Origin: Candidatus Thalassarchaeaceae archaeon
GTDB taxonomy: Archaea > Thermoplasmatota > Poseidoniia > Poseidoniales > Thalassarchaeaceae
NCBI GenBank assembly: GCA_045568075.1
Contig: JBJLBP010000001.1
Coordinates: forward strand, 30,001-62,000
Direction of reading: 5' to 3'
Length of the DNA: 32,000 bases
Made by a program: the position numbers and the translations under genes. The notes under the pieces are model-generated. The model had not been told where the DNA came from and made no database searches. It worked only from the letters and a program-made list of their open reading frames with translations. Of this stretch, positions 3,264 to 31,612 are shown piece after piece (the stretch's first letter is position 1; each line of letters starts with the position of its first letter).

Positions 3264-3307
3264 AGACCTCGATTGGCAAAGAGGGCTTCAATCCGATGCT
3301 GGTGGAA

Positions 3308-6300
3308 TCAGAGCATTTCATCGAGGAAAGATGTATCCAAATCTTCGTCATCATCGAGTTCATCAGCCATGTTTTCGAGATCATCGGCCAAATCGTCAAG
3401 ATCATCCAAATCTAGGTTTTCATCGTCGTCACCGAGTAATTCGTCCATCACTCCGGTGTCTGGTGCAGGCGCTGGGCCAAGATCCTCTTCGGTTGCTGCC
3501 CCAGCGCTAGCCGATGTAGCTGTGTAATCGCTTTCGTCGGAGTCGGATGTGGCTCCGTCCTTACGTCGAGCACCGGAGACCAAGCCCTCATCAATCTCCA
3601 AATCATCGAGTCCGAAGTCCTCATCTCCAGTGAGGCCAGCAGCCTCACGCTCGATTTGCTCTTCCAGCTCGACCTCAAGCGCACCCATCTCCCAAGGAGC
3701 TGGTGCGGAATCTTCTCGTGGCTTGATGAACAATAGAGCGCCAATCAGAAGCATGACGACAGAGAACGCTATGACGACTGCATTCATTTCGCCAGCGAGA
3801 ATCCTATCAATCCACGGCTCTCCAGCCGAATCATCGCCAGGTTGGGTTGTTCCGAATGATGATTCCTCCCAAGGCAAAACCTCAGTTGGATCTGCGTGAT
3901 AAGTGTGGACCTGCCCATTCCAAGTGACAATTTCAATCCAGTAAGTAGCCTCGCGGTCCACCGGTTCTCCGTCAAATTCGTTGAGAATTAGTATGGTGTC
4001 GCGCATTCCGGCCTTAACCAGGGTGGCATTGCGTGTATCGTCGAAGGATTCGGTGCTGACGTAAGCGTAGAAGCTGCCGTACATTGGATCTTCCGTATTA
4101 TCCCAATTCACTTCGATCAACGATCCCGCAGCATTCCAATTCGCTCGCATTCCGCTGACATCCGGGCACTCTGGGCATGGGTCAGCGGAGAGTTCGTCAG
4201 ACAACTCAATCCAAGCGCTTGCAAGGTTGTCTGTCCAGGCATTTCCAGATGAATCGACGGCTACGACTGTGACGTAAATTCTACGATTCGGTACAAGTGG
4301 CGTAGCCTGATCTTCTCCGTAGGCGGAGAACTCAGTTAGCAGTACGGGAAGGTATTGCTCTCTGTCGACTACTAAGGCTGGTTGGAGGTCATCGATTCTC
4401 TCGAGAAGTACTGGAGTATCAATTACCGCATAAATCCAGTATTCGGCGATGTCGGAGGCATCGCTTTCGATGAATTCTACGAACATCGCGTCGCCGGCGT
4501 CGCCGGGTCGATCACTGAGTACTGGTGGTTGCAAGCGATCGGGCGGAGAAATGTCTCCACGATTGTCTATCGGAGTGACGAGAACCATGTGATCCGAGAG
4601 CCCTGAAAGGTGCACGTTGCCGCTGACATCGTGGATGGTCACGGTGACATAGAGTGGAATCATCGATTCGATTTGACGGACTTCAAGAGTGTCGAGCGAG
4701 TTGCCGTAGAGCGCTCGCTCGGCGGTGAATTCGAGTTGGAAATTAGCGCCGAATTGGCGCTGATCGATGGTGATAAGTCCGCATGAATACGTCATTCCTT
4801 CACAGGAATCCCAAATCGCTGTAACATTCACCAGTGGATATTCTGAAACCCAGATTGTGTAGAATGAGAAATCCTCCGCTGCGGATCTATTCCAGCGAAT
4901 ATCGATGGCGGTTCCGTCATCGTCAGAATGGTCCCAAGCGTTGAGGCCTGTTACTCGATCTGGAGCTGAACCAGGACCTCCAAGATTCGCCATCGGCGTT
5001 GCGTCTACTATGTACACGTTGTCAACATCGGCATTGCCCCAATCATCGAAGGCTACCACACCTATCCAGTAAACCGTGTCATCGATGAGGCCACTCTCTC
5101 CCAACGAATCGATGATTATCGAAGTGGTCTCGCAATCAACGGTATAATCAGACACTGGCCAACCATCGACTGTCGAGGGTGGGCTCCATCCAGAAGCAGG
5201 GAGCGCGTAAATCGCGTAGTAGGTACAGTCCTCTTCGGTATTCGCATCCCAAGTGACATTGATCCTACCGCCCTCATCATTGGGCACATCTTCAGCGGTG
5301 GTTCCAGTGATTGGCGCAGGAGGAATACCGTCGTCGAGTCCGCCTGCGGTTACAACCGGTCCAATGATGGTGGCGTTATCGATTGAAGACTGTCCTGCCT
5401 CATCAACACAGACCGCTGCGAACCAGTAAGGCACTCCACCCTCTAGTTGCAGCACAGTAGTATTGCCTGTGCTCCAAGGGAAGTCCAAAGGATCTGTGAG
5501 ACCTATCGCAGTGGTAATTTCCTGTTGCACAGCCCATATTCGTGTTCGGTCAGGGTCAAGTTCGGTGCAAGCAGCCCATTCCAGTACCAAAGTTCCGGCA
5601 GCGCCTCCTGATACTGGCGTGGCGCTGAACCACTCGGGTGCTGCAGGAACTTCATCAGTCGGCGTGACATTCAGTGGATAGGTCATCGGAACGCCGAGGG
5701 AACCATCTGCGTATTCGATGACAATCGCTGCACGGTACTGACGATCATCACGCAACGCCTCGGTCACTCCGGCGTTATCCGCCTGTGTAACCGTCGCATT
5801 GGTGCGTGACCAGAAGTTGGAGCGAATGTAAGTTGAGAAATCCTGCAAATTTCGCTGCTCCGGCTCCCATAGAGGATCGGCCGTGGAATCCCAGACATAC
5901 AATCGATACGCATGCCAAGCTGCATCCTCGGCCGGTAGCCAAGAGGCCTCGATGACACCTCCGCCATCATTCGGTCTGTCCTCAAGACCGACGATTACAG
6001 TCGGAACCTCGACGCGCTCCCAATCATAGGTTATCCTAACTTGGATTGCACCGTCTTCGGGACTTTGTAATTGCAAATGCAGGTAAGCCGAGGAGGATCC
6101 TGGACCAACTGCTGAAATTGCTGATTGGAAGGCCTGCTGAATACCACCATTCGCGGCCGCCATATCCCAAGTTCCTGTGTAATTGAGTGCTGATGACCGC
6201 GCCCAGACCCACGACCCGCCTTGTGGCGCGGTCATCGTCATCGCGCCCACATGCATCGGTAAGCGACTCGGTGCGGCGATGTCAGAGGTCTGTGGAATCT

Positions 6301-9300
6301 CTATCGGATCATCAGGAGTGACAAGAATCGTCGACATTCCTGGATGAGTCGTGTCGGTGATATCCCACGTGCGCCCGCCGTAAAGAACCGTTAGCGGGTT
6401 AGCTCGTCGTTGATGTTCGCGTGACATTTCTTGCAAACTAACAACCGGAGAATAGACGTGTAGTCCGTCGCTACCAACCGCGTAAAAGCCGCTGAAGTCA
6501 ACGTATCCTCCCTGTAATCCAGTCGCGATTCGGCTAGTGACAACATTGTGGTTTCCATCAACATCGACAACGTCGAGGCCACGAGGACTCATCGCCACAA
6601 TATTCTGCCCATCGCTATGCAATTGGAATGGAGGCCACGAAAGCAGAGAGCCTTGGCCGACGCCGGTTTCCATCTTCATCTTAGAGCCATTCCAATGAAC
6701 GAGAGGCTCAACATCGGTAGCGATGTGAACGCCCCAATCATCGGTTGCAATTGCCCTAACGTCATTGCTTGGAATCATGTCGATATTGTAACTTCCATTC
6801 GCCATGTCGGTCATCAAATCCCAAGCTGCTACACCGGGGCGAGTAGGTCCCTGTCCATTGTGTGAGATGAAAATCGCCGCGTCGTGATAGAGGGTGGTAT
6901 TGGTGCCATCAGGATTCTGCACGACGCGAGAAACCGGTCCTGCATCTACGATCCCACTGACTGTATTACCCATCAGGCCGTTGTTGAATCCAAGCGTGTT
7001 GAGGACTGTCAGATTCGTCTGATGCAGGACCGTCAAGCCCGCAGCACCACCAGCGAGGAGCGAACCTCCACCCTGAATCGTCGTGTTTAGAGCGTGGAGG
7101 TGAGTGATAATCGGCGAAGGAAGACCGTCGATGGTGGTGATTGGGTCATCCCAGTCGTCACGAGTAGTGTTGTACATCCCGATTCCACCGTGCGTGGCAA
7201 TCATGATGTGATCACCGTATTCGATGAAATCACGCACGAGATTACTCGGCAGACCTGCGATTAGGCTGCCATGACCCCACTGATTGTTGCCGATATTGTA
7301 GGTCTGGAAGCCGGCAGCTGATCCCTGATTGCCCATCAGTCCGACGTAAATCGTGCCATTCTCGAGGATCATGCCATCCATCTGGGTATGCAGAGCAGGT
7401 GGAGTAGAAGTGATTCGGCGCTGTTGCAAATCAATCGCTTTGAGTCCTCGGCCGGCGGTTGTGACCCAGAGAGTCTCGCCGTCGAGCATCATATCGTTGA
7501 CAACATCATTTTGGAAATTATAACCAAATTCCCAGCGAACAGAGCCATTCGCAAGGATCTCGCCTTGGAGAATTGAAGAGCCGTAGTAGGAATTGACACT
7601 GAGAGCAGAAGTTACCCAGACGTGAGTGCTATTGGAGATTATTTCCAAAACCCGCCCACTGGATAGACCTGCGAGCTCGTCGTAGCCGCTGGCGATGAGT
7701 CCAGAGTTATCGAGACGGTCGACTCGGTTCATTCCCGTCGTCTGCCCCGAACGACCGATGGCGTAGACCGTTTGTCCTGAGTTGGATGGTGCGCGTTCTA
7801 TCGAACAACCATCCATTCCAGGATCGAGGACCTGCCCATTGGCTGTGGCGGTGCCGGATGTAACGATACGTGAGACACCACCTTCACCATCGTACTGATG
7901 CCCGGCGAGGAGCACGTTATTCTCGTGAAGCATTCCTCCTGGGAAGATTCTGTCCTCGCCGATACCGTCAGCGGCTGTGAGAGTTGAGAGATAGTTGTCA
8001 GTGTTGTAGTTGTAGCGATCGAAGCCTACACCTTCCGTATCGAAGCCTACGTACAATATGCGATTGGATTCGTCGCAAGCCATTGCTCGAGGATCATTAT
8101 CTGAGAGCCCCGAGGTACCCGATGTCATCGCGCTAATCCACTCATTGGTCAATTGGTCATTATCGTGGTCGGCCATGTCATAGCGCGCGATTCCGCCTTG
8201 ATTACCCCACCAAAATCGAGCTCCGATAGCAACATGGACGATGTCGTCGCAGAGTTTGATCTCAGCGGGGTATCCATCAGGAATGTCTCCGGTACCTAGA
8301 TCCCAAGAGGACCAGTTTCCGTTGGTACCATTCTTACGCATGATCTGAGAACCAGCATTCCAGCCGCCTGACTCCAGCGACCCAAGCCATAGGTCGTCGT
8401 CGATGATGGCCATTGTGTAGAACTCTTCCTCGGAGTCTGATGGTAGTCCATCACCAGGAGTCCAAGAGTCGAGCCAAGTCGCATTAACTGGATCCCAACG
8501 CAAGATTCCGTTCATGCTGGCGAAGAGATATTCTCCTTCGAATTCTTCCATTCCTCGAATCGGCCCCTCGATGTCAGTCCACTCATTTAGGAGAGTCATG
8601 GAGGCGGCATTGAATCGGCGGATGATGTAGTCGCCATATGCAACCCAGAGTTCACAGGATGTGGTATTCATCGGGAAGCATTCGCCAAGGAATCGAGCGT
8701 TGACACGGAGAACATTACCAATCGTAGGCAGATCCTCTTCCCATGTCTCATTGGTCATATTCCAACGGACGATGGTTCCATCTCCGTCATTCCAGTATTG
8801 TGTCGGTCGGACTCCAACCCAGAGTTGTTCTCCGACTGTCCCTATTCCGTAGACAACGCCAGCCCAGCCTGCTTGAGCGCCTGCATCAATTGTGCTCAGG
8901 CTAGAGTTAGATGAGATTTCGATACGGTAGATTTCATCACTCTGGGACCACCATCCATTCGCCCTCTGGAGCGAATAATGCAAAATTCCGTCGTGGATAA
9001 TAATGTCAGCTGGTGGAGAGTTTGAGAGGGTTGGACCATTGGCATTTGAACCACGATTCCAAGATATTAGGACATCGTCATTGACGACGTCGATTAGGGT
9101 CAGTCCGAAATCTCCACCGGCCCACATAGTACCTGATTCATTACCCGGAACCAATGCTGTGACATCGTCATCGTCGATGTATCCCTGAGTTCCGTCCCAA
9201 GTCGTCAACCACTCACTATTCGTCAAATCGTAGCGGGCGATTCCGGTATTCTCGAAGCCAAGATAGAGTATATCATCGATTTTTACCGTTCGCGAGCGTT

Positions 9301-11893
9301 GGGTGTCATCGCCGGCTGTCCAAGTCTCAATGACCGAGAAATTGTCCATGTTGACTATGCCTGCACCCGAATTGCCTCCTGTATAGGCGCGATCTGGAGC
9401 GAGCATCTCAATTGTGTATACGAAGCGACTTTCCAAACCATCCTGAGAGCTGACACAATCTTGGAATTGATACTGCCAATTCCACTTACAGGCTCCGCGA
9501 TTGGTTCCTGCGTACATTCCGTCACCATCGCTCGTGACGTCGTAGAAAACGGAAGGCCGATTCCACCAAGATCCACTACTAGTCATCGTCGTCCAAGAGT
9601 TACCGTCGTATCTTGAGAAAGCACCCTCTGTGCCAACTAGAAGGCCGCCGTAATCGTCCATCTCGAGAGATAGAACATCGTCATCAGGGAGAGTATTTGC
9701 ATCCTGAGTCCAATACTCAGAGATATCTCCAGTCAGCCTGTCAACAACGAGAATTCCAAATTCGTAGAGACCAATGTAGACGACCTCGCCGTCGACCGCC
9801 ACAGGGGTTGCATCGAGGTCATCGGCACCGAGTGATTGCCATGAGCCCATGATTGTCGAGGTCGAGAGTTCGACGCGCATCACGCCCGCGTCTGGAGTCG
9901 CGATGTATGCGATTCCATAGCGCGCCGCCACCGAGTTCACGAAGTCAGAATCGAGGCCATCAGAAGTCGTCAGAGTGTCGACTAGAGTCATCTGATTAGT
10001 ATCAATGATAGAGATTCCAGATTCGCTATGGCCAACCACGAGATAGCCAGTTGAGGTATCGAAAGCGAGTGAAGTGGCTTGGTTAGAACTCAGTCCTGAT
10101 ACCGTGCCGATGTAGGAGCCATCGGTATTGTCGAGGCGCAGCACCCCAGCATTCGTTGTTCCAACCCAAACCTTGTCGTTGCCATCCTGAATGATTGAGA
10201 TAATCTGCCCGGGGCTACCAACGTAATCCCTGATATCAATCGGTGACTTCCAAATCTGGTCCGATTCGTCAAAGCGATCGATGATCTTGTTACTAGCAAT
10301 CCAGATTTCTCCCATCTCTCCATCCTCGATGTGAGATACGACCGTCATCCCGTCTGTAGATGGGCTACTGACCAAAGTCAGGGTGCCGGCAGGCGTCTCG
10401 CCAACCAACATGCCAAGCGTACCCGAACCATCGCTGAATAATGCGGTCGGGGAGTTAGGGCCGCGACCGGCGTGCGCCGGCCATGGAATCGCCATCGCTC
10501 CATTTTCATACAGACCGAGATCTGTCAATTGATTCTGCGAGCGGAAGATGAGCGAATTCGTGTCGTAGGCGTGTACCACGGCACCAGCGAGAATGTGGAG
10601 CCAACCATCAGTGACCGACAGTCCGTGGACTTGGTTTGAAGAGAGCCAATTGCTCGTCGACCAAGTCACCATCCAAGATTGAGAGGCGAGATCGCGACGA
10701 TTGATTCCAGAGTCATAAGTAGCGATAAGGAGATGATTACCAACCACTGCTAAGTCGGTGATGAAGTTGGAAGAAAGGAAGTTCTGGGTATTCCACACCG
10801 TGTGTGAATCAATTGTTACAGAGACACTCCCTGAGGAAGAACTCGTAGTGAAATCGAGAAGGTGGACTCCAGCGGTGCTCGTGGCGAGATGGACTCTATC
10901 GCCGATGATTAGAATGTCAGAGGGTGTCTCGATATTCAGAGTCTGACAATAATCGTACTCTGTCCAATCATTGGCACTCATAGTCCTGTAATGCACAGTG
11001 CAGAATCCAGCAGCCCAGATGGTCCCATAATCATCGACGGCAATAGCGTGGATACCAGAATCATCTGAGTCATCGCCAATCAACAAATCAGGAAGCATCG
11101 ACGAATCTGAGAAGCTACGAGAAAGTACCGATCCATTTTCTGTGCCAATCAGCAACCTGCCGGCGTCTTCGTCGATTCCCAGCGATCTGCCCATAATTCC
11201 TACTTCGATATCGACGATTGGTTTCTGAGCCCGAGCGTCGAGATGGAGTAGATCATCATCAAGAAGAATGTACAATCGGCCGTCGACCGGATTTACGGCG
11301 CTGTCGTGGATCTCAACATCCTGCACCGAAAACGAAATCTTCGGGTCGGCAGGTCGCAACGCCTCGATCACCATGTCTGTCAAAGAAACGCCTGCAGGTA
11401 ATTCCCACGAGGCGTCAGAGATTGAATTGGGACGCAAATGAGTATCTAAAGTTCCATTGAGAACGGTCGGTGGATTATTTTCCATCTCGTCCTGCCTACC
11501 AAGATCACCGTATCCTCGCCAGTCGAGGATCGGTGTTTGAGTATCCATCAATGTCAGTTGAGGCTCATTCGCCCAATAGCCAGCTGAACCATTGACTGAA
11601 ATCTCGAATGTCAAATTAGAGATTTCTGCACCGGGAGCGAACGGCAGAAACAAATCGCTGTAAGCATAGGTTCCATTCGCCGGATCTGCTCCCGTCGCAA
11701 CAAGATCAATCCAACCTGTATCATTACTCCCCGAGGCGCCCCAAGCGGTCTGAACAACCTGCCTCGAATCCTGCTCAGAAACCAGCTCGTCAGCACCAGA
11801 ATAGGCTGACCAGGGCAGCATTACCATCAGCATGGCGAGTAGCAGAGCAGACCTCCGCTTCCTCTGCATCGGCTGACGAAAAGACATGGGCAC
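3308..11893 (-). CDS. giant (2861 aa) type-I membrane-anchored surface protein: signal peptide, multi-beta-propeller-like region, six FN3-like modules, one TM helix, acidic cytoplasmic tail
   Basis: A single uninterrupted 8.6-kb ORF. The track start is GTG at 11893, with an ATG two codons later at 11887. See the sub-features below. No catalytic motif was recognised. Confidence 0.9.
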   Translation of the reverse strand: MPMSFRQPMQRKRRSALLLAMLMVMLPWSAYSGADELVSEQDSRQVVQTAWGASGSNDTGWIDLVATGADPANGTYAYSDLFLPFAPGAEISNLTFEISVNGSAGYWANEPQLTLMDTQTPILDWRGYGDLGRQDEMENNPPTVLNGTLDTHLRPNSISDASWELPAGVSLTDMVIEALRPADPKISFSVQDVEIHDSAVNPVDGRLYILLDDDLLHLDARAQKPIVDIEVGIMGRSLGIDEDAGRLLIGTENGSVLSRSFSDSSMLPDLLIGDDSDDSGIHAIAVDDYGTIWAAGFCTVHYRTMSANDWTEYDYCQTLNIETPSDILIIGDRVHLATSTAGVHLLDFTTSSSSGSVSVTIDSHTVWNTQNFLSSNFITDLAVVGNHLLIATYDSGINRRDLASQSWMVTWSTSNWLSSNQVHGLSVTDGWLHILAGAVVHAYDTNSLIFRSQNQLTDLGLYENGAMAIPWPAHAGRGPNSPTALFSDGSGTLGMLVGETPAGTLTLVSSPSTDGMTVVSHIEDGEMGEIWIASNKIIDRFDESDQIWKSPIDIRDYVGSPGQIISIIQDGNDKVWVGTTNAGVLRLDNTDGSYIGTVSGLSSNQATSLAFDTSTGYLVVGHSESGISIIDTNQMTLVDTLTTSDGLDSDFVNSVAARYGIAYIATPDAGVMRVELSTSTIMGSWQSLGADDLDATPVAVDGEVVYIGLYEFGILVVDRLTGDISEYWTQDANTLPDDDVLSLEMDDYGGLLVGTEGAFSRYDGNSWTTMTSSGSWWNRPSVFYDVTSDGDGMYAGTNRGACKWNWQYQFQDCVSSQDGLESRFVYTIEMLAPDRAYTGGNSGAGIVNMDNFSVIETWTAGDDTQRSRTVKIDDILYLGFENTGIARYDLTNSEWLTTWDGTQGYIDDDDVTALVPGNESGTMWAGGDFGLTLIDVVNDDVLISWNRGSNANGPTLSNSPPADIIIHDGILHYSLQRANGWWSQSDEIYRIEISSNSSLSTIDAGAQAGWAGVVYGIGTVGEQLWVGVRPTQYWNDGDGTIVRWNMTNETWEEDLPTIGNVLRVNARFLGECFPMNTTSCELWVAYGDYIIRRFNAASMTLLNEWTDIEGPIRGMEEFEGEYLFASMNGILRWDPVNATWLDSWTPGDGLPSDSEEEFYTMAIIDDDLWLGSLESGGWNAGSQIMRKNGTNGNWSSWDLGTGDIPDGYPAEIKLCDDIVHVAIGARFWWGNQGGIARYDMADHDNDQLTNEWISAMTSGTSGLSDNDPRAMACDESNRILYVGFDTEGVGFDRYNYNTDNYLSTLTAADGIGEDRIFPGGMLHENNVLLAGHQYDGEGGVSRIVTSGTATANGQVLDPGMDGCSIERAPSNSGQTVYAIGRSGQTTGMNRVDRLDNSGLIASGYDELAGLSSGRVLEIISNSTHVWVTSALSVNSYYGSSILQGEILANGSVRWEFGYNFQNDVVNDMMLDGETLWVTTAGRGLKAIDLQQRRITSTPPALHTQMDGMILENGTIYVGLMGNQGSAAGFQTYNIGNNQWGHGSLIAGLPSNLVRDFIEYGDHIMIATHGGIGMYNTTRDDWDDPITTIDGLPSPIITHLHALNTTIQGGGSLLAGGAAGLTVLHQTNLTVLNTLGFNNGLMGNTVSGIVDAGPVSRVVQNPDGTNTTLYHDAAIFISHNGQGPTRPGVAAWDLMTDMANGSYNIDMIPSNDVRAIATDDWGVHIATDVEPLVHWNGSKMKMETGVGQGSLLSWPPFQLHSDGQNIVAMSPRGLDVVDVDGNHNVVTSRIATGLQGGYVDFSGFYAVGSDGLHVYSPVVSLQEMSREHQRRANPLTVLYGGRTWDITDTTHPGMSTILVTPDDPIEIPQTSDIAAPSRLPMHVGAMTMTAPQGGSWVWARSSALNYTGTWDMAAANGGIQQAFQSAISAVGPGSSSAYLHLQLQSPEDGAIQVRITYDWERVEVPTVIVGLEDRPNDGGGVIEASWLPAEDAAWHAYRLYVWDSTADPLWEPEQRNLQDFSTYIRSNFWSRTNATVTQADNAGVTEALRDDRQYRAAIVIEYADGSLGVPMTYPLNVTPTDEVPAAPEWFSATPVSGGAAGTLVLEWAACTELDPDRTRIWAVQQEITTAIGLTDPLDFPWSTGNTTVLQLEGGVPYWFAAVCVDEAGQSSIDNATIIGPVVTAGGLDDGIPPAPITGTTAEDVPNDEGGRINVTWDANTEEDCTYYAIYALPASGWSPPSTVDGWPVSDYTVDCETTSIIIDSLGESGLIDDTVYWIGVVAFDDWGNADVDNVYIVDATPMANLGGPGSAPDRVTGLNAWDHSDDDGTAIDIRWNRSAAEDFSFYTIWVSEYPLVNVTAIWDSCEGMTYSCGLITIDQRQFGANFQLEFTAERALYGNSLDTLEVRQIESMIPLYVTVTIHDVSGNVHLSGLSDHMVLVTPIDNRGDISPPDRLQPPVLSDRPGDAGDAMFVEFIESDASDIAEYWIYAVIDTPVLLERIDDLQPALVVDREQYLPVLLTEFSAYGEDQATPLVPNRRIYVTVVAVDSSGNAWTDNLASAWIELSDELSADPCPECPDVSGMRANWNAAGSLIEVNWDNTEDPMYGSFYAYVSTESFDDTRNATLVKAGMRDTILILNEFDGEPVDREATYWIEIVTWNGQVHTYHADPTEVLPWEESSFGTTQPGDDSAGEPWIDRILAGEMNAVVIAFSVVMLLIGALLFIKPREDSAPAPWEMGALEVELEEQIEREAAGLTGDEDFGLDDLEIDEGLVSGARRKDGATSDSDESDYTATSASAGAATEEDLGPAPAPDTGVMDELLGDDDENLDLDDLDDLADDLENMADELDDDEDLDTSFLDEML
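3311..3724 (-). other. 138-aa highly acidic, low-complexity predicted cytoplasmic tail
   Basis: Contains ..EVELEEQIEREAAGLTGDEDFGLDDLEIDEGL..DSDESDY..MDELLGDDDENLDLDDLDDLADDLENMADELDDDEDLDTSFLDEML. Rich in D/E/L with repeated D-D-L / D-E-L units. Confidence 0.7.
3725..3781 (-). other. single C-terminal transmembrane helix of the giant protein (aa 2705-2723)
   Basis: AVVIAFSVVMLLIGALLFI followed by KPRED. It is the only strongly hydrophobic segment after the signal peptide. Confidence 0.8.
3854..6016 (-). repeat. six tandem FN3-like modules (protein-level repeats, about 110-140 aa period)
   Basis: Strand-B/C signatures: IEASWLPAEDAAWHAYRLYVW, LVLEWAACTELDPDRTRIWAV, INVTWDANTEEDCTYYAIYA, IDIRWNRSAAEDFSFYTIWV, MFVEFIESDASDIAEYWIYAV, IEVNWDNTEDPMYGSFYAYV. 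Each is followed by a strand-F/G signature: YRAAIVIEYADGS, YWFAAVCVDEAGQSS, YWIGVVAFDDWGNAD, LYVTVTIHDVSGNVH, IYVTVVAVDSSGNAW, YWIEIVTWNGQVH. Confidence 0.6.
6040..11775 (-). repeat. about 1900-aa region of beta-propeller blade-like repeats (Reg_prop / two-component-regulator-propeller-like), protein level
   Basis: Recurring blade signatures: DDYGTIWAAG, DGNDKVWVGTTNAGVLRLD, DDYGGLLVGTEGAFSRYDG, DGDGMYAGTNRGACKW, GTMWAGGDFGLTLID, GEQLWVGV, DDDLWLGSLESGGW, GETLWVTTAGRGLKAIDL, NGTIYVGLMG, GDHIMIATHGGIGMYN. Boundaries are approximate and the fold assignment is by motif only. Confidence 0.5.
11795..11893 (-). other. predicted Sec signal peptide of the giant protein (aa 1-33)
   Basis: MPMSFRQPMQRKRRSALLLAMLMVMLPWSAYSGA has a basic n-region, a hydrophobic core and a small-residue A-Y-S/G-A cleavage-like site. 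Confidence 0.7.
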
Positions 11894-11953
11894 GAACCAT
11901 TGGCCTGCTTGTTCCCATTATGAAAGGCATGGGTTGGTGATTTTGTCTTGAGT

Positions 11954-17191: not shown

Positions 17192-20100
17192 ATGCGGTTA
17201 TCGCCGGATGCCGTGCCTGTCGCGCGCGTGAGTGATGAGAAAGACGACCGCGTGATTCGCGAGCGTCGCTTCAAGATGGGCGGCAACATCGACATCGATG
17301 ATCTCGGATTGGAAGACATCCGCTCCAATGCATCCGAGCAGGAACCAACATCTCCTAACTCCGATTCAAAGCCCGAAATCGATGAAGCTCTCGGCGATGT
17401 TTTCGATCCATTCGCCGAAACATCGGGAACCGAAGCAGGAGCTATTCAGGCCGACGGAAGTGTACTATCGGCTCCCGAGGATGATATCGTTACCTCGATG
17501 GCGAAAGATGGTGAACGCCGAGTCAATTGGTCACTGATGGTAGCGATGATTTTCGTTTTCAGTGCACTGAGCGTAGTCGCTGGAACGGCTTTCACGCCTC
17601 TCGTCTCTCTGATTTTGCTCTTGGCGCTCGCCGTAACCGGCTTCACACTCGGCGAGCGCTGGGTGCCAAATCCAGACTTGCATCTACTGGGAGTTTCGTG
17701 GGTCATCATTTCGATGAAGGTCCTCTATGGGCTTGCAATTGAGTTGAATCGTTGGGAATTAGGTGGAATTTTCCCTATTTCTGTTGAAGCCCTCGCTATC
17801 CTATTGATTCTCCTCGTCGCTCTCAACGTCTTCGTCGCCTACCGCCACGATCACGATGCGATTGCGGCCCAAGCCACGTTGGTTCTCTTGGCGATTGGCT
17901 CAACGGCGGGCTCGATTGGAGGAGAGGTCGGAGTCGCTGTGATGATTCTCGTCGCAACGCTACTGCTCCACGGACTCGCCTTACACCGAGGCTCTGGTAA
18001 CTTGGCAGCCCTCGGTGTCGCAGCCTCTAACCTATGGATAGGAATGCACGCCGTCACCAATGGATTCACCGCTGGCTCTCTGGTGATAGAACCCCTCGAT
18101 ACACCACTGATTCTCTTCCTGCTCCTAATGGTAATCACTGGTCTAAACGCAGCCATGGCAGCGCGCTTCGCGCGTGAAGACAATTGGTTCTCTCAGGGAT
18201 TCAAGGCGGCTGGCTTGGGCCAGCCGGGACTCTGGGGCGTATCGATTTCTCTCGGAATGGTCGGAGCCCTCATGGCAGTCGCTTCCAGCCGAGAGGACTC
18301 CGGCTTCGCGCTCGGAATGGTGACATTCCTCGCCGGCGCCTTCGGCGGCTCTTATCTCGTCGTGCGAGGAGTAGAGAAGCTCAGGGTGGCCATTCCATTA
18401 TTGGCAGGTGGAATGTTATTCTCGCTGCTTCTCATCTTTGGGGATTTAACTGAATCCATCTCACTTTTCGACCGCTACGAAACTTTCACTATCTTTGCTA
18501 CGATTCTTACCGGATTCGTCATGCTGCGTGACCAAAACCGCGTGACTGACCGCGTTCTTTGGGTAGGTTCAGTCGGCGTTCTGGTGCTCGTAGTAATTCT
18601 GATTCCAGCCGAGTCTAAGGCCGCTGGCGGCGACGGTGGATTGGCTCTCCTAGCTTTGCTGACGACGCTGCACATCGGAACTGCCGTGCTCGCTGTGATA
18701 CGCAAGGCCCCCTCGCTCGCGGGCGCTACAGTTCTGCTGCCGTGGGCTTGGGTATTGTTGCAGGAAATTGTCATCGAGGCGATTCGAACTGTGATGATAA
18801 CGAATGGGTGGTCCGACCCAGGAAATTTGATTGAACTGGCTCCGATTCCATTCGCCGTCTATCTTGTAATCTCGGTCGGATTGATGCTCATAGTCAATCT
18901 GCAGATGGGGTCGACTGGGGTCAATCTGGCAGCAGGATTCCTCGGAATCACCGAAATCTCGGCTTCGATTCGTGATTCCGGCGCTCTGCAATTATGGTCG
19001 ATGGGACTCTGGCTGCCGATGATCACAATCATCGTCATGGCACATGCTGGAGGATTCACCGCCCTCACTTTACTCGTAGTCGTCGGGGCGGTGTCAGCGG
19101 CCCATCTTGGGGCTGAATTCGTTGGACAGAGGCTAGGAGGCGCAGTGGCGTTGCTGGCGATTATCGCTGTCAGCGCTGCGATGCTTGGGTGGAAACACGG
19201 GCTTGACGAAATGTGGGTTCTTCTGATTCTCGTTGCGACCGGATCAATTCTCTATCGCGGAGAGCCCGATGACGAGCCTCGATTCACCAATGGGATCGCT
19301 CTGATGTCATTGCCACTCCTAATCGCCATCTCAACAAATGAGCCGGCGAGAATACTCGAGGCGACCGACTCTCTTCCTGACCTCGATATTTCTCTCACAG
19401 CAGTTGCCAGCACTGGTGCGGTGATGGCGATTTATCTCCCGCGCGCGGAAAAGATGGAGAAATTGCTCAAGCCGGCCGCGGCGGCACTCTGGTTGTTGGT
19501 AATCACCATCGGCCTCTCAGTGCAATTGAACAACGATACAGCAACCATGGCCGGGCTAGGCCTTTTCGCACTCAGTTCGCTATGGTTAGTTGCGCGTGGA
19601 GAGATTCGCGCTGAGCTGAAATCGATTACCCAGCGCGACGAGCGCTTGGCGATGGTAGGCCGCGAGGCTGAAGTCATGCTAAGTGGAGGCGCGGGGGGAA
19701 TCGATGGATATGACCCGCGACGTGCAGAACTCGAAGCCAAGCGAAAGAAGCGACGCGACCTCACATCAGCAGACGATGATGCTGATCTCTACACAACCGA
19801 TGTCTCGCACCGACCGACGATTGTACTCCTAGTCCTCATTCTCATTCTCGGTGCGACAATCGTTTGGGGAATGCTGTTCGCTTCCTCCCCAATCGTCCTT
19901 CTAATCGCAGGAGTTTTCGCAACACTGCTCGTCACCATCGCTCGTCTAAGGACAAAACAACTCGAACTCGACTTACCGACTGTTCTCGGTATGGAGATGC
20001 CGATTGCATACGCGATTATTGGATTGACTTTAGCCCTCGTCGCCGGTCATATCGGCCCCGGTGGAAGTAATGCACAATTGCTCGATATGGCCGTCGTGAC

Positions 20101-20986
20101 AATTCTCATTCTCCAATTCGTCATTATCTCTCTTTACCGACAGGACAACCTTCTCGACCGAATCCCAATCGCTCTCGATTGGTTCGTCCTGCCTTTGGTT
20201 CTCGGAAGATTACTCGGGGCGGTGATGGTTGAGTCACTTCCTGCCCCGTTCACCGTCGATCCACTCGACGGTGATTTCATCGAATGGCAGATTCCATGGC
20301 TTCTACTCGAAACCCTCCTCATATTCACGATTGGCATTGATGCAATGATTGACGCTCGCAGGACGAGCGTCGGTCGAGATTCACACCAATCCAGCTCTGG
20401 TCGAGGAATGCGAACCCTCGCAATCGTCATGATTTCATGGGGACCAGCTGCAATCCTCGCAGTAGCCAACGCTGTTTTGTCGGGACGCAAACATCGTCAG
20501 GTCGAAGCAGTCGGATTAGCAATCCTCTGCGCCCCATTAGCCCTGTTTTCTCTCAGCAACATATTGCCAGCAATCGGAGATAATCTCGATTGGATCATCC
20601 TTGGAGGAGGGGTGATGATGTTGATTCTGGTCGGAGCGGCGGTACCGATGCGCGATGGTCACTGGACGATGATGGCGGCTGTCGATGGCCATATTCTGCT
20701 ATTCACTGGTCTTCTATCTGTCAACGAAGCAATGTTCTATCCAGTCGCACTCTTTGCCATGTCGACAACCCTGTGGGTCGTCGGAATCCTTCACTTACGC
20801 CGTATTCTGCGAGTTTGGGGGCTGGTCGATTTGGTGCTGGGAAGTGGAGTGGCCTTGCTGATGCTGGGGGCATCGGGCAGCATCAACGCCGGCGGCCTAT
20901 TCTTGCTGCTCGCGGTCATCGGCGCTGAACTCGCTCTCGTCACTTGGTTGGGACAACGCAACGAGGAAGCCATACTGAGAGACTGA
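17192..20986 (+). CDS. very large polytopic integral membrane protein (about 35-38 hydrophobic segments by eye), no recognised family
   Basis: 1264 aa. Layout: acidic N-terminal ~110 aa, about 25 TM segments, a charged 73-aa linker (aa 802-874, nt 19595-19813: ..RRAELEAKRKKRRDLTSADDDADLY..), then about 13 more TM segments. An alternative start is the ATG at 17276 (MGGNIDIDDLGLEDI..). Confidence 0.85.
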   Translation: MRLSPDAVPVARVSDEKDDRVIRERRFKMGGNIDIDDLGLEDIRSNASEQEPTSPNSDSKPEIDEALGDVFDPFAETSGTEAGAIQADGSVLSAPEDDIVTSMAKDGERRVNWSLMVAMIFVFSALSVVAGTAFTPLVSLILLLALAVTGFTLGERWVPNPDLHLLGVSWVIISMKVLYGLAIELNRWELGGIFPISVEALAILLILLVALNVFVAYRHDHDAIAAQATLVLLAIGSTAGSIGGEVGVAVMILVATLLLHGLALHRGSGNLAALGVAASNLWIGMHAVTNGFTAGSLVIEPLDTPLILFLLLMVITGLNAAMAARFAREDNWFSQGFKAAGLGQPGLWGVSISLGMVGALMAVASSREDSGFALGMVTFLAGAFGGSYLVVRGVEKLRVAIPLLAGGMLFSLLLIFGDLTESISLFDRYETFTIFATILTGFVMLRDQNRVTDRVLWVGSVGVLVLVVILIPAESKAAGGDGGLALLALLTTLHIGTAVLAVIRKAPSLAGATVLLPWAWVLLQEIVIEAIRTVMITNGWSDPGNLIELAPIPFAVYLVISVGLMLIVNLQMGSTGVNLAAGFLGITEISASIRDSGALQLWSMGLWLPMITIIVMAHAGGFTALTLLVVVGAVSAAHLGAEFVGQRLGGAVALLAIIAVSAAMLGWKHGLDEMWVLLILVATGSILYRGEPDDEPRFTNGIALMSLPLLIAISTNEPARILEATDSLPDLDISLTAVASTGAVMAIYLPRAEKMEKLLKPAAAALWLLVITIGLSVQLNNDTATMAGLGLFALSSLWLVARGEIRAELKSITQRDERLAMVGREAEVMLSGGAGGIDGYDPRRAELEAKRKKRRDLTSADDDADLYTTDVSHRPTIVLLVLILILGATIVWGMLFASSPIVLLIAGVFATLLVTIARLRTKQLELDLPTVLGMEMPIAYAIIGLTLALVAGHIGPGGSNAQLLDMAVVTILILQFVIISLYRQDNLLDRIPIALDWFVLPLVLGRLLGAVMVESLPAPFTVDPLDGDFIEWQIPWLLLETLLIFTIGIDAMIDARRTSVGRDSHQSSSGRGMRTLAIVMISWGPAAILAVANAVLSGRKHRQVEAVGLAILCAPLALFSLSNILPAIGDNLDWIILGGGVMMLILVGAAVPMRDGHWTMMAAVDGHILLFTGLLSVNEAMFYPVALFAMSTTLWVVGILHLRRILRVWGLVDLVLGSGVALLMLGASGSINAGGLFLLLAVIGAELALVTWLGQRNEEAILRD

Positions 20987-21088: not shown

Positions 21089-22075
21089 TTGATGACGGGC
21101 GGGTGCGGGAACAACACCGTGTCAGGCAGTTGGATATCGGACACCCCTGATGAGGTGGAGCACCCAACCGTGCCACTCGGGATCAATGAAATGGCGATTC
21201 CACGCGCCGCGATTCTACTTTCTTTGGCCACCGCGGCGCTACTAATCATCTCAACAATCGTCGTTGGATACAGCGTCTATGACTTCGCCAAGAATAATGA
21301 AGATGCGTTCTCAGTGACCGATAAGGACCTACTGAAGGATGAAAATGAGCGATGGTACTGGGAAATCGATCTACTCTTCGATACCTGCGACTCACGTCTT
21401 GGAGAGTGGAACTGGCCAGATGTGCTTGCTGACCAAGATGATGTATTTCTCTATCCAGGAGAATTGCGTTGTGATTGGGAGCATCAGGGCGATGGGGACC
21501 GAGCCAGCGTTGTAATCTACAACCGAGGGGATCAGACGCTCGACCTCGTGCTTGAAATCGCAGGAGGCGAGGTCGTCTTCGCATCAGAGGGTGATAGCGA
21601 TATGACGCTCGATCCTATCGAACCTAATGGCACTGCAATCGTTGAGATTGAATTGGAAAGTGAGGTTACCGAGCACGACATCACCATCGAGGCCTCTCAC
21701 CTGCGAGTTCCTGAGGCCGAAGTCCTGCTCGACGTCCATATCTTCGAGGGAACCGAAGCACGTGAAATTCACGCCAGTGACGGAGATAGCCTCGCGGTCC
21801 ACTACAAGGTGTGGGACGCCGACACGAATGAGCTGCTGGATGAAGGTGACCTCGTCGTTACAGCGGGAGATGATTCGAATTACATCAAGGGATTCGGTTG
21901 GTCGGCGATTGGACTCGACATTGATGAAGATCGAGGACTGATTCCAGGCATCGATACCGGGACTACCCACACAACTTTGCTACCGCCACCAATTGCTTAC
22001 GGAAATAGCGACGGACACGAACTTCAAGAGTCGTGGTTGCGCTTTGAGTTGAAGGTCGATAGAGCGACCATTTGA
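21089..22075 (+). CDS. membrane-anchored protein with predicted extracytoplasmic Ig-like region and C-terminal FKBP-type peptidyl-prolyl isomerase-like domain
   Basis: N-terminal anchor AAILLSLATAALLIISTIVVGY (nt ~21200-21268), preceded by Arg. The C-terminal ~100 aa (nt ~21764-22060) follow the FKBP pattern: GDSLAVHYKVW..LLDEG..YIKGFGW..LLPPPIAYG..WLRFELKV, versus FKBP12 VVHYTG..FDSS..VIRGW..ISPDYAYG..LVFDVELL (from memory). The start is uncertain: TTG 21089, ATG 21092 or ATG 21191. Confidence 0.5.
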   Translation: MMTGGCGNNTVSGSWISDTPDEVEHPTVPLGINEMAIPRAAILLSLATAALLIISTIVVGYSVYDFAKNNEDAFSVTDKDLLKDENERWYWEIDLLFDTCDSRLGEWNWPDVLADQDDVFLYPGELRCDWEHQGDGDRASVVIYNRGDQTLDLVLEIAGGEVVFASEGDSDMTLDPIEPNGTAIVEIELESEVTEHDITIEASHLRVPEAEVLLDVHIFEGTEAREIHASDGDSLAVHYKVWDADTNELLDEGDLVVTAGDDSNYIKGFGWSAIGLDIDEDRGLIPGIDTGTTHTTLLPPPIAYGNSDGHELQESWLRFELKVDRATI

Positions 22076-28723: not shown

Positions 28724-31612
28724 TCATACGAATGCGATACCAGGTTCGAGCGGGAAGGCGACCCTCGCCTTACCACCGACATCCTCGCCTTCCCCAACTG
28801 GGTAAGCAACGACCGATTCTACGTCTAGAGCAGCGGCGATGAAATCTGCAGCCGCATTGATTACGTCGTTCTCAGCCAAGCCGCTCATCACCAATTGCTT
28901 CTCGCCGTCGGACCAAGTGTGAATTCTGCCTCGACGCTTCTTCGAGCCCATCGATAGAGCCATCCAAGTCTGGAAAATCTCTCCTCGAAGAGCCTCTTGA
29001 GCAAATATCGGTAGAGATTTGAGATGGTCTTGGCCCTGACGCTTGAAATCAAATTCACTAGCAGCCAAGCCGACCGCTTCACGTGCCAACTCGCCCTTCC
29101 AAGCGGCAGCAGTCTGAATCACAACTCCAGTAATTGGTGCGTCCGAGTGACGTTCGGCCAACCCACGCAGATTACGTCCAGACTCGATCACTCCGCGCAA
29201 GTAAGCCTCTCGCGCGAGCACGGCAACATCAGAGGAAGAATCGCCAGCCAAATCAGCGGAAGCAGAATCGAATTCCATATCATAACTCGCGAGCATCTCA
29301 TCCATCCCAAGTTCAGCCCAGAATTCCTCTGCGATGTGAGGTGTGGCCGGAGCTAACATAGGAGCCCATCCAGCCAAAAAGCGCCGCGCAGTAGCCCGGT
29401 CAGCGCCTCCGCGTCGCAAATACCATTGCCAATCAGCAAGCATCTCGAAATGGCTCGCCATAACTCCCTCGCGTAGACTCACATCATCCATACAAGCGTG
29501 CCATCGTGTCTGATTCGCACGCAGGCGAGCCAGTAACCATTCATCCATAGGACCTGGTGCATCTTCCAGCGAATTGCCTGTATTGAAAGCGTCAATTATC
29601 GAACAGAGTTGTTTGTAGTTAGCCAAAACTGCATTGTCAGACCAGTCCATCCCAGCCTCCGGATTAGCTCCGAAGAGAATGAAAAGACGAACCGTATCAG
29701 CTCCGAATTTCCCTACCATTTCGCCCGGACTAACCGTATTTCCGAGACTCTTGCTCATCTTTGCCGAACGCGTACTCAAACCTGCTCCGCACGTCGGACA
29801 ATCGCCTCCGAAATTCTCGATATGGTACTCCGTATTGCAATCAGAACAGAACGGGGCGGGCGCGTTGAGCATGCCCTGGCAGACTAAGCGCCCGAAAGGC
29901 TCGCCGATCGAATTCATGCCGAGAGCGCGCGTCGCCTTGGTGAAGAAGCGGGCATACAAGAGATGCATAACGGCGTGTTCGATTCCTCCAATGTAGAGGT
30001 CCACGCCGCCATCCAGCCAGTAATCAACCGCTGAGCGGTCGAAAGCCTGCGAGTCATTTGCAGAATCTGCGAAGCGTAGGAAATACCAAGATGAATCGTA
30101 AAAAGTGTCCATAGTATCAGTCTCGCGACGAGCGGGACCGTTGCACTGCGGACATGTTGAGACAAGGAATGATTCGCTAGCCGCGAGGGGGTTGCCACTC
30201 TCCTCCCAACTGAAAGTAACATCGAGAGGCAATTCGACAGGGAGTTGATCGTAAGGCACTGGCACAACTCCACAAGCCTCGCAGTGAAGCATTGGAATCG
30301 GCGTGCCCCAGAAGCGCTGTCGGCTTAGCAGCCAATCCTTGAGCCGATACTGAACGGTGCCCTGTCCGGTTCCCTCAGCCTCCAGCGCAGAAATCACCGC
30401 AGCCTTCGCTTCGTCACCAAATAGCCCATCAAACTCAGCCCGTGTCGAATTAATCATCCAACCTAGACCATCGAAAACGGGATTCTCCTCAACGCCCTCA
30501 CCGCCCTCGCGTCGAGACAAAACTGGCTTCACTGGAATTCCGTATTTCTTGGCAAAGTCGTAATCGCGCTGATCGTGACCAGGCACGGCCATCACAGCTC
30601 CAGTTCCGTAACTGGCGACAACGAAGTTGCCAGCGTAGATTGGAATCTCTTCGCCGGTCAGTGGATTGATTGCAGAGCGACCGAGTGGAACACCCTTCTT
30701 TTCCTTCAGCATGTTGATTCGCTCGAACTCGGATAGCTTGGCGCACTCATCAGCAAGAGTTCGCCATCCAGCCTCATACTCAGTCCCGGCAACAAGAGGC
30801 TCGCAAAGCGGATGCTCGGGTGAGAGCGTCACGAAAGTCACGCCAAAAATAGTGTCAGGGCGTGTAGTGAACGCCCCGATAATGGCGCTCTCACCATCAA
30901 CTTCACCGGCAACAGGAAACTCGATTTGAGCGCCATGAGATCGTCCAATCCAGTTGCGTTGCATCGCTTTCACATTCTCAGGGAACTCGATGTGGTCCAA
31001 TTCATCGAGCAACTCATCGGCGTACTCAGTCATGCGGAGGAACCACTGAGCCATGTCCTTCTGAACGACCTCGAGACCACATCGCCAGCAGCGATTATTC
31101 TTCACCTGCTCATTGGCAAGCACAGTATCACAATCGTCGCACCAATTGACTGGAGCAAAGCGTCTCTCAACCAACCCAGCCTCATTGAAACGAAGGAAAA
31201 GTTCCTGATTCCAGCGATAATACTCAGGCGTCGACGTAGCGAACGTCCTTCGCCAATCGTACGAATATCCCATCCTTTCCTGATCAGCACGTATCATCAC
31301 GATGTTACGCTCCGTCACGGAGTGCGGATGTCCGCCTTCCTTCTTCGCAGCATTCTCGGCGGGCATCCCGAAGGAATCGTAGCCCATCGGATAGAGGACA
31401 TTCTTGCCCATCAAGCGTTGGAAGCGAGCCATAGCATCGCCAATGGAGTAGTTGCGTACATGACCCATGTGCATGGAGCCAGAGGGGTATGGGAACATTT
31501 CGAGGCAGTAGAACTTCGGACGTGAGTCATCGACTTCCGCTTCAAACAAGCGCGCCTCTTGCCAGCGTGACTGCCAGCGCGTCTCGATATCTTGTGAATC
31601 GTATGCCATCAT
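28724..31612 (-). CDS. leuS: leucine--tRNA ligase, bacterial-type architecture
   Basis: HIGH motif PYPSGSMHMGHVRNY and KMSKS at nt 29747-29761. The N-terminus is collinear with E. coli LeuRS (FYCLEMFPYPSG..GKNVLYPMGYDSFGMPAENAA..TPEYYRWNQ..VNWC..TVLANEQV, from memory). The track ORF starts at TTG 31744. I prefer ATG 31612 (MMAYDSQDIETRWQ) because homology starts there and GGGGTGA lies 2 nt upstream. Confidence 0.95.
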   Translation of the reverse strand: MMAYDSQDIETRWQSRWQEARLFEAEVDDSRPKFYCLEMFPYPSGSMHMGHVRNYSIGDAMARFQRLMGKNVLYPMGYDSFGMPAENAAKKEGGHPHSVTERNIVMIRADQERMGYSYDWRRTFATSTPEYYRWNQELFLRFNEAGLVERRFAPVNWCDDCDTVLANEQVKNNRCWRCGLEVVQKDMAQWFLRMTEYADELLDELDHIEFPENVKAMQRNWIGRSHGAQIEFPVAGEVDGESAIIGAFTTRPDTIFGVTFVTLSPEHPLCEPLVAGTEYEAGWRTLADECAKLSEFERINMLKEKKGVPLGRSAINPLTGEEIPIYAGNFVVASYGTGAVMAVPGHDQRDYDFAKKYGIPVKPVLSRREGGEGVEENPVFDGLGWMINSTRAEFDGLFGDEAKAAVISALEAEGTGQGTVQYRLKDWLLSRQRFWGTPIPMLHCEACGVVPVPYDQLPVELPLDVTFSWEESGNPLAASESFLVSTCPQCNGPARRETDTMDTFYDSSWYFLRFADSANDSQAFDRSAVDYWLDGGVDLYIGGIEHAVMHLLYARFFTKATRALGMNSIGEPFGRLVCQGMLNAPAPFCSDCNTEYHIENFGGDCPTCGAGLSTRSAKMSKSLGNTVSPGEMVGKFGADTVRLFILFGANPEAGMDWSDNAVLANYKQLCSIIDAFNTGNSLEDAPGPMDEWLLARLRANQTRWHACMDDVSLREGVMASHFEMLADWQWYLRRGGADRATARRFLAGWAPMLAPATPHIAEEFWAELGMDEMLASYDMEFDSASADLAGDSSSDVAVLAREAYLRGVIESGRNLRGLAERHSDAPITGVVIQTAAAWKGELAREAVGLAASEFDFKRQGQDHLKSLPIFAQEALRGEIFQTWMALSMGSKKRRGRIHTWSDGEKQLVMSGLAENDVINAAADFIAAALDVESVVAYPVGEGEDVGGKARVAFPLEPGIAFV

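Follow-up and report, generated by a model that had tools for sequence, protein, structure and literature searches.

What does a giant gene found in a marine archaeon encode, and what could its product do at the surface of the cell? The gene lies in a genome of the order Poseidoniales, the archaea of Marine Group II (MGII), which are among the most abundant archaea of the surface ocean. They have never been cultured and, to our knowledge, nothing is known of their cell envelope. We analysed a stretch of 32,000 nucleotides of contig JBJLBP010000001.1 from a Candidatus Thalassarchaeaceae archaeon (positions 30,001 to 62,000, called hereafter the window and numbered from its first letter). A preliminary description of this DNA had pointed to one open reading frame (ORF) of 2861 aa covering about 27% of the window. 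Our ORF call gave the same ORF, with 2861 codons making up 26.8% of the window, that is, a gene of ~8.6 kb for a protein subunit of ~305 kDa. The same protein, identical, is present in ENA, NCBI, JGI, Tara and Logan assemblies. Our best explanation, to which we give a probability of about 40%, is that it is a core, constitutive stalk-and-canopy envelope glycoprotein of the Poseidoniales, which probably binds glycans. Its domains are of known kinds but stand in a new, order-specific arrangement, and the protein is unusual in its evolutionary stability and in its conserved cytoplasmic peptide. The gene and the parts of its product, from the N-terminus to the C-terminus, are the following:

3308..11893, minus strand: complete ORF, 2861 aa plus stop, type I membrane protein (ORF call; identical to cluster representative P0001)
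11798..11893, minus strand: predicted signal peptide, aa 1-32, with an RKRR n-region, a ALLLAMLMVMLPW core and a cleavage site between AYS and G (-3/-1 rule)
11312..11797, minus strand: orphan N-terminal domain, aa 33-194 (conservation; low-confidence model)
10376..11311, minus strand: predicted propeller 1, blades 1-7, aa ~195-506 (hhalign, model), the most variable one, with a ratio of non-synonymous to synonymous substitutions (dN/dS) of 0.13-0.16
9452..10342, minus strand: predicted propeller 2, blades 8-14, aa ~518-814 (Pfam Reg_prop and PorZ_N matches, hhalign, model)
8444..9421, minus strand: predicted propeller 3, blades 15-21, aa ~825-1150 (hhalign, model)
7406..8422, minus strand: predicted propeller 4, blades 22-28, aa ~1158-1496 (hhalign, model)
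6452..7381, minus strand: predicted propeller 5, blades 29-35, aa ~1505-1814 (hhalign, model)
6014..6406, minus strand: orphan linker domain, called X, aa ~1830-1960, partly helical, with a predicted local distance difference test score (pLDDT) of 40-70
3824..6013, minus strand: six modules like fibronectin type III (FN3) domains, the putative stalk, aa ~1961-2690 (hhalign, models, Foldseek, phmmer)
3719..3787, minus strand: single transmembrane (TM) helix, aa ~2703-2725 (hydropathy)
3311..3718, minus strand: cytoplasmic tail, aa 2726-2861, with 37% Asp plus Glu and a juxtamembrane PWE[ML]G (sequence, alignment)
3311..3340, minus strand: candidate C-terminal short linear motif LDTSFLDEML (alignment of 54 sequences)

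For the fold of the extracellular part, AlphaFold2 was run on two overlapping pieces, from an alignment (A1) of the query and 53 homologues. The model of residues 36-1200 (mean pLDDT 81.2) contains 22 four-stranded blades beyond its low-confidence start, and that of residues 1151-2310 (mean pLDDT 82.4) contains 14, the first of which is common to both models. In total, 35 four-stranded blades are predicted between aa ~195 and ~1815, with a mean length of 46.3 aa, a pLDDT mostly of 80-95 and the consensus V..ia.DgG.LyVGt...GI.R.D..N.s.lssWt..DGL. When segments of ~325 aa were compared by hhalign, five mutually homologous units were found at a probability of 95-98.6%, several of them in register over 226-264 columns. 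The simplest reading of the 35 blades would be five 7-bladed propellers, a 5 x 7 partition that we infer rather than read from inspected coordinates. The blade motif had first been thought to recur at least ten times. With 35 blades in the models this count falls short in substance; the motif as it was written, [DN]xxGx[ILMV]W[VA]G, is too strict, since it matches only once (aa 918), while a relaxed pattern picked up 16 blades spaced by 40-54 aa.

The propellers belong to a type known from bacteria. Pfam Reg_prop (PF07494) matched the query with 29.8 bits for a cut-off of 20.4 and was found in 12 of 17 diverse family members; Pfam PorZ_N_b_propeller (PF21544) matched it at E 1.2e-8 and was found in 9 of the 17, both query matches lying at aa 561-686. 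A search of the PDB with the family profile matched sensors of the hybrid two-component systems (HTCS) of Bacteroides thetaiotaomicron, namely BT4663 (4a2l/4a2m; E 1.1e-33 for 4a2l), BT3049 (3v9f; E 2.5e-26) and BT4673 (3ott/3va6; E ~8e-17), and also PorZ of the Porphyromonas type IX secretion system (5m11; E 3e-5). Both models retrieved the same HTCS sensors and PorZ by Foldseek at E 1e-20 to 1e-15, with ~1e-20 for HTCS and 7e-18 for PorZ. The suggestion that the propellers are of the glycan-sensing type of Bacteroidetes HTCS is upheld by these matches. Foldseek also returned metazoan multi-propeller ectodomains, those of LRP2, LRP4, Sevenless and ROS1.

Beyond the propellers, the model is partly helical and of low confidence over aa ~1850-1960, and beta-sandwich modules begin at aa ~1967. 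Linker X had no Pfam match, and the whole-family profile search of the PDB gave nothing over it, no separate search having been made with X. The modules that follow start approximately at aa 1961, 2076, 2186, 2306, 2446 and 2566. By hhalign, F1 to F6 were joined as one homologous set, most pairs having a probability of 74-99%; F2 is linked weakly to F1 and F4 and strongly to F3. The three modelled modules are beta-sandwiches with a pLDDT of roughly 80-90, and the stalk model matched FN1-FN3 of contactin-4 (CNTN4, 7mro) by Foldseek at E 2e-11. Pfam fn3 (PF00041) did not match the query at E<=1 and was detected in two of the 17 homologues (best E 8e-7); it is precomputed for P0101, P0117 and P0118. 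When aa 1662-2861 were used in an exhaustive phmmer search, the protein's own family was followed by giant proteins with 15-18 matching stretches. One of them, P0143, was matched at E 1e-50; Pfam recognises its repeats as fn3 at E 8e-92. Since the repeats matched by phmmer are true Pfam fn3, the stalk modules can be read as FN3 of bacterial type, a kind of module that this protein seems to have in common with bacterial surface proteins. Each of them opens with an acidic loop resembling D-x-P-x-D-x-G-G, which, as a speculation, may bind cations. Apart from the family itself, P0143-P0169 are other giants of 2000-5960 aa with 5-18 copies of an FN3 module akin to F2-F4; some carry PKD and rhamnogalacturonan-lyase domains, and one comes from a Nitrospirota bacterium.

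Both ends of the extracellular part have the signals of a type I membrane protein. The N-terminus, a basic RKRR followed by a hydrophobic core of 13 residues and the A-Y-S/G site, fits a Sec signal peptide, for which the -3/-1 rule suggests the cleavage site, and its LPWS region is conserved in the family consensus. At the other end, a Kyte-Doolittle scan found exactly one TM-grade segment, at aa ~2703-2724. The layout first proposed, with a signal peptide, a multi-propeller head, a stalk of six FN3-like modules, a single TM helix and a tail, is thus borne out by the rule-based reading, the models (blades and beta-sandwiches at a mean pLDDT of 81-82), hhalign and hydropathy. Between the signal peptide and propeller 1, the N-terminal domain is among the best-conserved parts of the protein, with two near-invariant N-glycosylation sequons at N57 and N93. 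Its model is weak (pLDDT 29-72, residues 36-185 being of low confidence), the profile search of the PDB gave nothing better than E 0.35 for it, and nothing significant was found in Pfam. By hhalign, neither this domain nor linker X resembled other segments of the protein.

The surface chemistry is that of an acidic and probably N-glycosylated protein. The pI is 4.05, and lysine amounts to 0.6% of the residues, when the other proteins encoded in the window have 1.5-7%. We counted 33 N-x-S/T sequons in the ectodomain for 21.6 +/- 4.2 expected from composition. In an alignment of 54 homologues, about nine of these sequons are kept by at least 75% of the sequences, two of them in the N-terminal domain. 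Invariant cysteines occur in plausible pairs, such as C802/C813, C2109/C2162 and C2223/C2254.

We then looked at the distribution of the gene. A word-indexed search returned 126 clusters of homologues, from 100% down to 32% identity, whose source names are Candidatus Thalassarchaeum, Poseidoniaceae, Poseidoniales and "Euryarchaeota archaeon"; four truncated entries apart, the full-length homologues listed measure 2740-3043 aa, nearly all of them at most 2906 aa. A scan of GTDB, with one genome per species, gave 464 stretches encoding a relative. Among the best 80 of these 464, for which the names were examined, all were named Poseidoniales, Thalassarchaeaceae, MGII or as a generic archaeal metagenome-assembled genome (MAG), and the closest relatives were Thalassarchaeaceae (94%), which places the window in an MGIIb genome. 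Among 1.84 billion cluster representatives, 286 matched at E<=1e-3, about 17 of which are full-length representatives of the family. With 126 homologous clusters and 464 matching stretches, the ORF is far beyond chance. No full-length member named outside the Poseidoniales was seen among the search matches, and a search for viral homologues found none. On these searches, the family is discrete and belongs to the Poseidoniales, where the gene is widespread and probably near-universal. NCBI labels its members "two-component regulator propeller domain-containing protein", "fibronectin type III domain-containing protein" or "hypothetical protein", and the giant protein is not discussed in the MGII genome and transcriptome literature that we searched.

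The gene order around it is fixed as well. The order malic enzyme, giant gene, pabC, pabB was found in both families of the order: upstream, in divergent orientation, 77 of 84 loci have a malic enzyme-PTA gene, and downstream an aminotransferase-IV gene (pabC-like) occurs in 56 and a fused pabA-pabB in 40 of the 84. There is one copy per locus in all MAGs but one. The exception, MAG BH13 (JAERST01), has two full-length copies on different contigs (L007 and L060), 85% and 79% identical to the query, which probably reflect a mixed bin rather than paralogy. In 72 of the 73 loci where the gene lies wholly inside a contig, the ORF is intact, with 2700-2934 aa from stop to stop (median 2876), so that the orthologues are not consistently fragmented. 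The one broken locus (L049, 6001-14759) is 94% identical and spans 8759 nt for ~8590; its frame is interrupted, the longest ORF having 1463 aa, for which an assembly error and a rare pseudogene are the two possible explanations. This locus is what could speak for a non-functional or artefactual ORF, that is, a pseudogene, an assembly chimera or a mis-called frame. The 72 intact orthologues, the strong purifying selection described below, the confident folds (mean pLDDT 81-82) and the identical protein in several assemblies all go against such an origin, whose likelihood we regard as negligible, and it is effectively refuted.

To measure selection, dN/dS was computed against two orthologues, at 94% and 85% identity. 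The values for the giant gene were 0.073 and 0.059, respectively, when those of its neighbours pabB, pabC, malic enzyme, epimerase and phosphoenolpyruvate carboxykinase (PEPCK) ranged from 0.036 to 0.147. Segment by segment, the ectodomain including the stalk gave 0.02-0.16, propeller 1 being the most relaxed. At this domain resolution, diversifying selection on exposed domains was looked for and none was found, the maximum being the 0.13-0.16 of propeller 1. At larger distances, the giant protein diverges about as pabB and pabC do, and faster than malic enzyme and PEPCK. These results indicate that purifying selection on the gene is at the housekeeping level. Its evolution is unlike that of a fast adhesin with variable repeat number or of a hypervariable phage-receptor island, and points to a constitutive role with constraint along the whole molecule. 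The low dN/dS over the entire ectodomain fits many fixed protein-protein contacts.

These data bear on a different reading, in which the protein would be a dedicated polysaccharide- or particle-binding adhesin or a substrate-capture receptor, present in sparse copies rather than as a structural coat, with propellers that bind algal glycans or particles. The homology of the propellers to the glycan-sensing HTCS domains, and to PorZ, which is annotated as a type IX secretion system protein for the delivery of anionic lipopolysaccharide, would suit such a function, as would the FN3 stalk, whose length is typical of giant adhesins. MGII are also thought to use high-molecular-weight organic matter, partly on particles (PMC6461757, PMC6336850). 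However, typical adhesins are present in some genomes and absent from others, differ in their numbers of copies and repeats, and change rapidly, whereas this gene is widespread in the order, in one copy per locus (the one MAG excepted), with fixed length and synteny and a dN/dS of ~0.06-0.07 over its whole length. Moreover, both families of the order have it, although their members reportedly are not alike in their ability to attach and include coastal populations that are mostly free-living, and at 9-14% structural identity a ligand site cannot be deduced by homology. The preliminary description had preferred a receptor or adhesin to an S-layer protein; the wide distribution in one copy per locus, the invariant domain number and length, the fixed synteny and the low dN/dS do not favour that choice, and we consider an adhesin possible but somewhat less likely than an envelope coat.

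The cytoplasmic tail led to another point. It had been described as an acidic tail of 138 aa, and in the query it does have 136-138 aa with 36-37% Asp plus Glu. Its acidity is not a family trait: it reaches 31-41% in closer relatives and falls to 8-22% in most of the more distant ones, where the tail is rich in Gln and Pro. This acidity is lineage-specific. Across the family, the tail measures 73-156 aa and its interior is weakly conserved, with 22-50% gaps; a PWE[ML]G motif beside the membrane is semi-conserved. The last ten residues, by contrast, hardly vary and read [ILV]D[TS]SF[LI]DD[LM]L. In the 54 sequences aligned, D2858 is present throughout, conservation reaches at least 90% for D2853, F2856 and L2861, and some members have 2-4 acidic residues after this peptide. 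The window and 1.4 Mb of related loci were searched for other ORFs with this ending, and none was found. A conserved terminal peptide on a variable and probably disordered tail is characteristic of a short linear motif for docking, and would suit the binding of a partner in the cytoplasm. This pattern strengthens the earlier suggestion of a link between the tail and the cell interior. As a separate observation, the tails of P0062 and P0079 (e.g. L001 ~18400-18637) carry two to three tandem acidic repeats D-L-D-E-L-N-Q-M-A-D-G-L before the terminal motif, of which the query tail has a single degenerate copy (DDLADDLENMADEL).

The protein could then be a transmembrane sensor or coupler, in which a ligand shifts the ectodomain as in HTCS and changes the engagement of the terminal peptide with a cytoplasmic partner, so that outside information would be relayed, or the envelope mechanically linked to an internal machine. 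The parallel with HTCS sensors in the succession of propellers, Ig-like domains, TM helix and cytoplasmic part goes in this direction, as does the near-invariant end, with the semi-conserved PWE[ML]G, of an otherwise variable tail. The acidic-Phe-aliphatic-Asp core of the peptide also loosely recalls the SepF-binding peptide at the C-terminus of archaeal FtsZ, "LDDFI", which is followed by a nearly invariant GID (PMC8178401). Mimicry of the FtsZ tail was not retained: the likeness is only loose and the GID is absent from a tail that ends in DTSF[LI]DD[LM]L, which makes the resemblance a lead and not a finding. Beyond this absence, no kinase, receiver, DNA-binding or other output domain is recognisable, there is no Y_Y_Y domain, the neighbouring genes are metabolic with no conserved one that hints at a partner, and the terminal peptide could equally serve sorting or turnover. 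A sensor or coupler seems to us unlikely. A bolder version, which we hold to be distinctly improbable, is an independently evolved archaeal outside-inside coupler made of a giant glycan-binding ectodomain, one TM helix and a flexible tail whose terminal peptide docks a division anchor of the SepF/FtsZ type or another cytoskeletal or membrane-remodelling protein. If true, envelope and cell interior would be linked mechanically or informationally, in a way integrin-like in function.

Returning to the envelope coat, we propose the following arrangement. The Sec signal peptide would export the protein, and the single C-terminal TM helix, which the sequence shows directly, holds it in the membrane. 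The six FN3 modules would form a rigid stalk of ~20-25 nm or more (6 x 3.5-4 nm, from typical FN3 dimensions) that lifts a head made of the five Reg_prop propellers and the orphan tip domain off the membrane. Many copies side by side would build an outer, acidic, N-glycosylated protein coat, like archaeal S-layers of the stalk-and-canopy kind. The propellers of this coat would probably serve to bind glycans or other polymers, like their homologues in bacteria, and the near-invariant terminal peptide of the variable tail would dock a cytoplasmic partner. In archaea, S-layer proteins are often type I proteins that are N-glycosylated and anchored at the C-terminus, and the giant protein has such features: a signal peptide, a large extracellular part, a C-terminal membrane anchor, and enriched and conserved sequons. 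Its wide distribution, fixed form and housekeeping-level constraint also speak for a coat, as does its acidic, lysine-poor composition. In Pfam and NCBIfam, neither an enzyme family nor any NCBIfam family was detected, and the first impression of a protein with no enzymatic motif and no PGF-CTERM stands. The coat, adhesin and coupler readings overlap, as one protein could form a coat, bind glycans and be attached to the interior at the same time.

Several observations weigh against a coat. In Pfam, NCBIfam and, by profile, the PDB, no characterised S-layer family was matched, and neither a PGF-CTERM nor an archaeosortase signal turned up. After the TM helix comes a 136-aa tail instead of a short basic end, and known S-layer proteins rarely have a long cytoplasmic tail with a conserved peptide. 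By our estimate, building such a coat from subunits of 305 kDa would be expensive for a small cell. Codon adaptation relative to the ribosomal genes of the window is 0.66 for the giant gene, inside the 0.58-0.68 of ordinary genes, and so says nothing on expression. Finally, the MGII transcriptome literature that we searched gave no expression data on the giant protein and does not name it among the top transcripts, and in a Red Sea metatranscriptome it is disordered "collagen-like cell surface proteins" that are among the top MGII transcripts, as the surface candidates with very high expression (PMC5069720).

How does the protein compare with known systems? The ectodomain of HTCS sensors is the nearest analogue, with homologous propellers and the same order of parts, from propellers to Ig-like domain(s), TM helix and cytoplasmic part. 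HTCS sensors have two propellers and one Y_Y_Y domain, whereas the giant protein has five predicted propellers, six FN3 modules and two orphan domains. They end in a kinase, a receiver and an AraC output, when here there is only a disordered-looking tail of 136 aa, and, unlike theirs, its archaeal host lacks a periplasm bounded by an outer membrane. Membership in the HTCS sensors was rejected: Y_Y_Y (PF07495) gave no match at E<=1 in the query or at E<=0.01 in 17 members, and neither kinase, receiver nor AraC was matched in the cytoplasmic part. PorZ is also surface-exposed with tandem Reg_prop-like propellers; the giant protein differs from it by its own TM helix as anchor, by the lack of the C-terminal domain of the type IX secretion system and by a size about four times larger. 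Membership in PorZ was rejected on that missing domain and on an NCBIfam equivalog score of 17.9 bits for a cut-off of 260.

The layout had initially been called integrin-like. This holds only as an analogy: lacking an FG-GAP propeller, the protein does not belong to the integrins, and neither the GFFKR of the integrin alpha tail nor any integrin family match was found. More generally, Sevenless/ROS1, LRP2/LRP4 and integrin alpha are single-pass proteins with several propellers and FN3 or EGF modules, a combination that explains why metazoan receptors rank at or near the top in Foldseek. Their propellers are of the YWTD or FG-GAP type, with 9-11% identity, and the giant protein has no kinase and no recognised heterodimer partner. 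The likeness is one of convergent architecture, not of membership. In archaea, Jing et al. (2002, Structure 10:1453) reportedly described a Methanosarcina surface protein of YVTN propellers and PKD domains, whose design was likened to that of metazoan cell-surface receptors. These Methanosarcina proteins follow the same principle of a propeller head on Ig-like modules and are the closest archaeal precedent. The giant protein, with Reg_prop and fn3 instead of YVTN and PKD, is far larger and from another phylum, and it has a TM anchor and a conserved cytoplasmic peptide that the Methanosarcina class lacks; no sequence relationship between them was detected in this analysis.

As for the surroundings of the gene, a possible promoter element was found on its upstream side:

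11917..11925, minus strand: TATA-like element TTTCATAAT, ~28 nt upstream of the GTG start of the giant gene (read from sequence)

It sits in the divergent intergenic region of 183 nt common to the giant and malic enzyme genes, and its distance of ~28 nt from the start suggests that the transcript could possibly be leaderless. On the downstream side, 44 nt without a T-rich terminator (3264-3307) separate the giant stop from the pabC-like start, and pabC and the fused pabA-pabB overlap by 4 nt (2484-2487). The giant gene may be co-transcribed with these para-aminobenzoate/folate genes. In about 20 species genomes, the contig stops 1.2-1.5 kb past the giant gene and pabC/pabB are not there (L039, L040, L054, L055, L057-L059, L063, L065-L067, L069-L074, L076-L078 and L082); in L055, a 120-aa zinc-ribbon/TM ORF follows the giant gene instead. 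rRNA and tRNA genes were sought as a cause of these recurrent ends and none were found; a variable island or a repeat may be present at this place. Further along the window, 17192-20986 (plus strand) encodes a 1264-aa protein with ~28 predicted TM segments and no Pfam or NCBIfam match, which adjoins PEPCK in 46 of 84 related loci and is replaced by a Patched/MMPL-type transporter in distant relatives (L001). Next to it, 21089-22075 (plus strand) encodes a 328-aa protein with a pI of 4.05, one N-terminal hydrophobic segment and no family match, which may be another exported orphan; its counterpart has a weak FKBP-type isomerase match in a published MAG table (PMC9723583 supplement).

Altogether, a gene that occupies 8.6 kb of a small genome, is widespread and as constant as a central metabolic enzyme likely defines how MGII cells meet polymers, particles, viruses and grazers. 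As a conserved extracellular protein, its product could be used as an antigen so that antibodies capture and sort live MGII cells, and it is a clear target for the reading of cryo-tomograms or metaproteomes. Its invariant C-terminal peptide offers a bait for the cytoplasmic partner in an organism without genetics.

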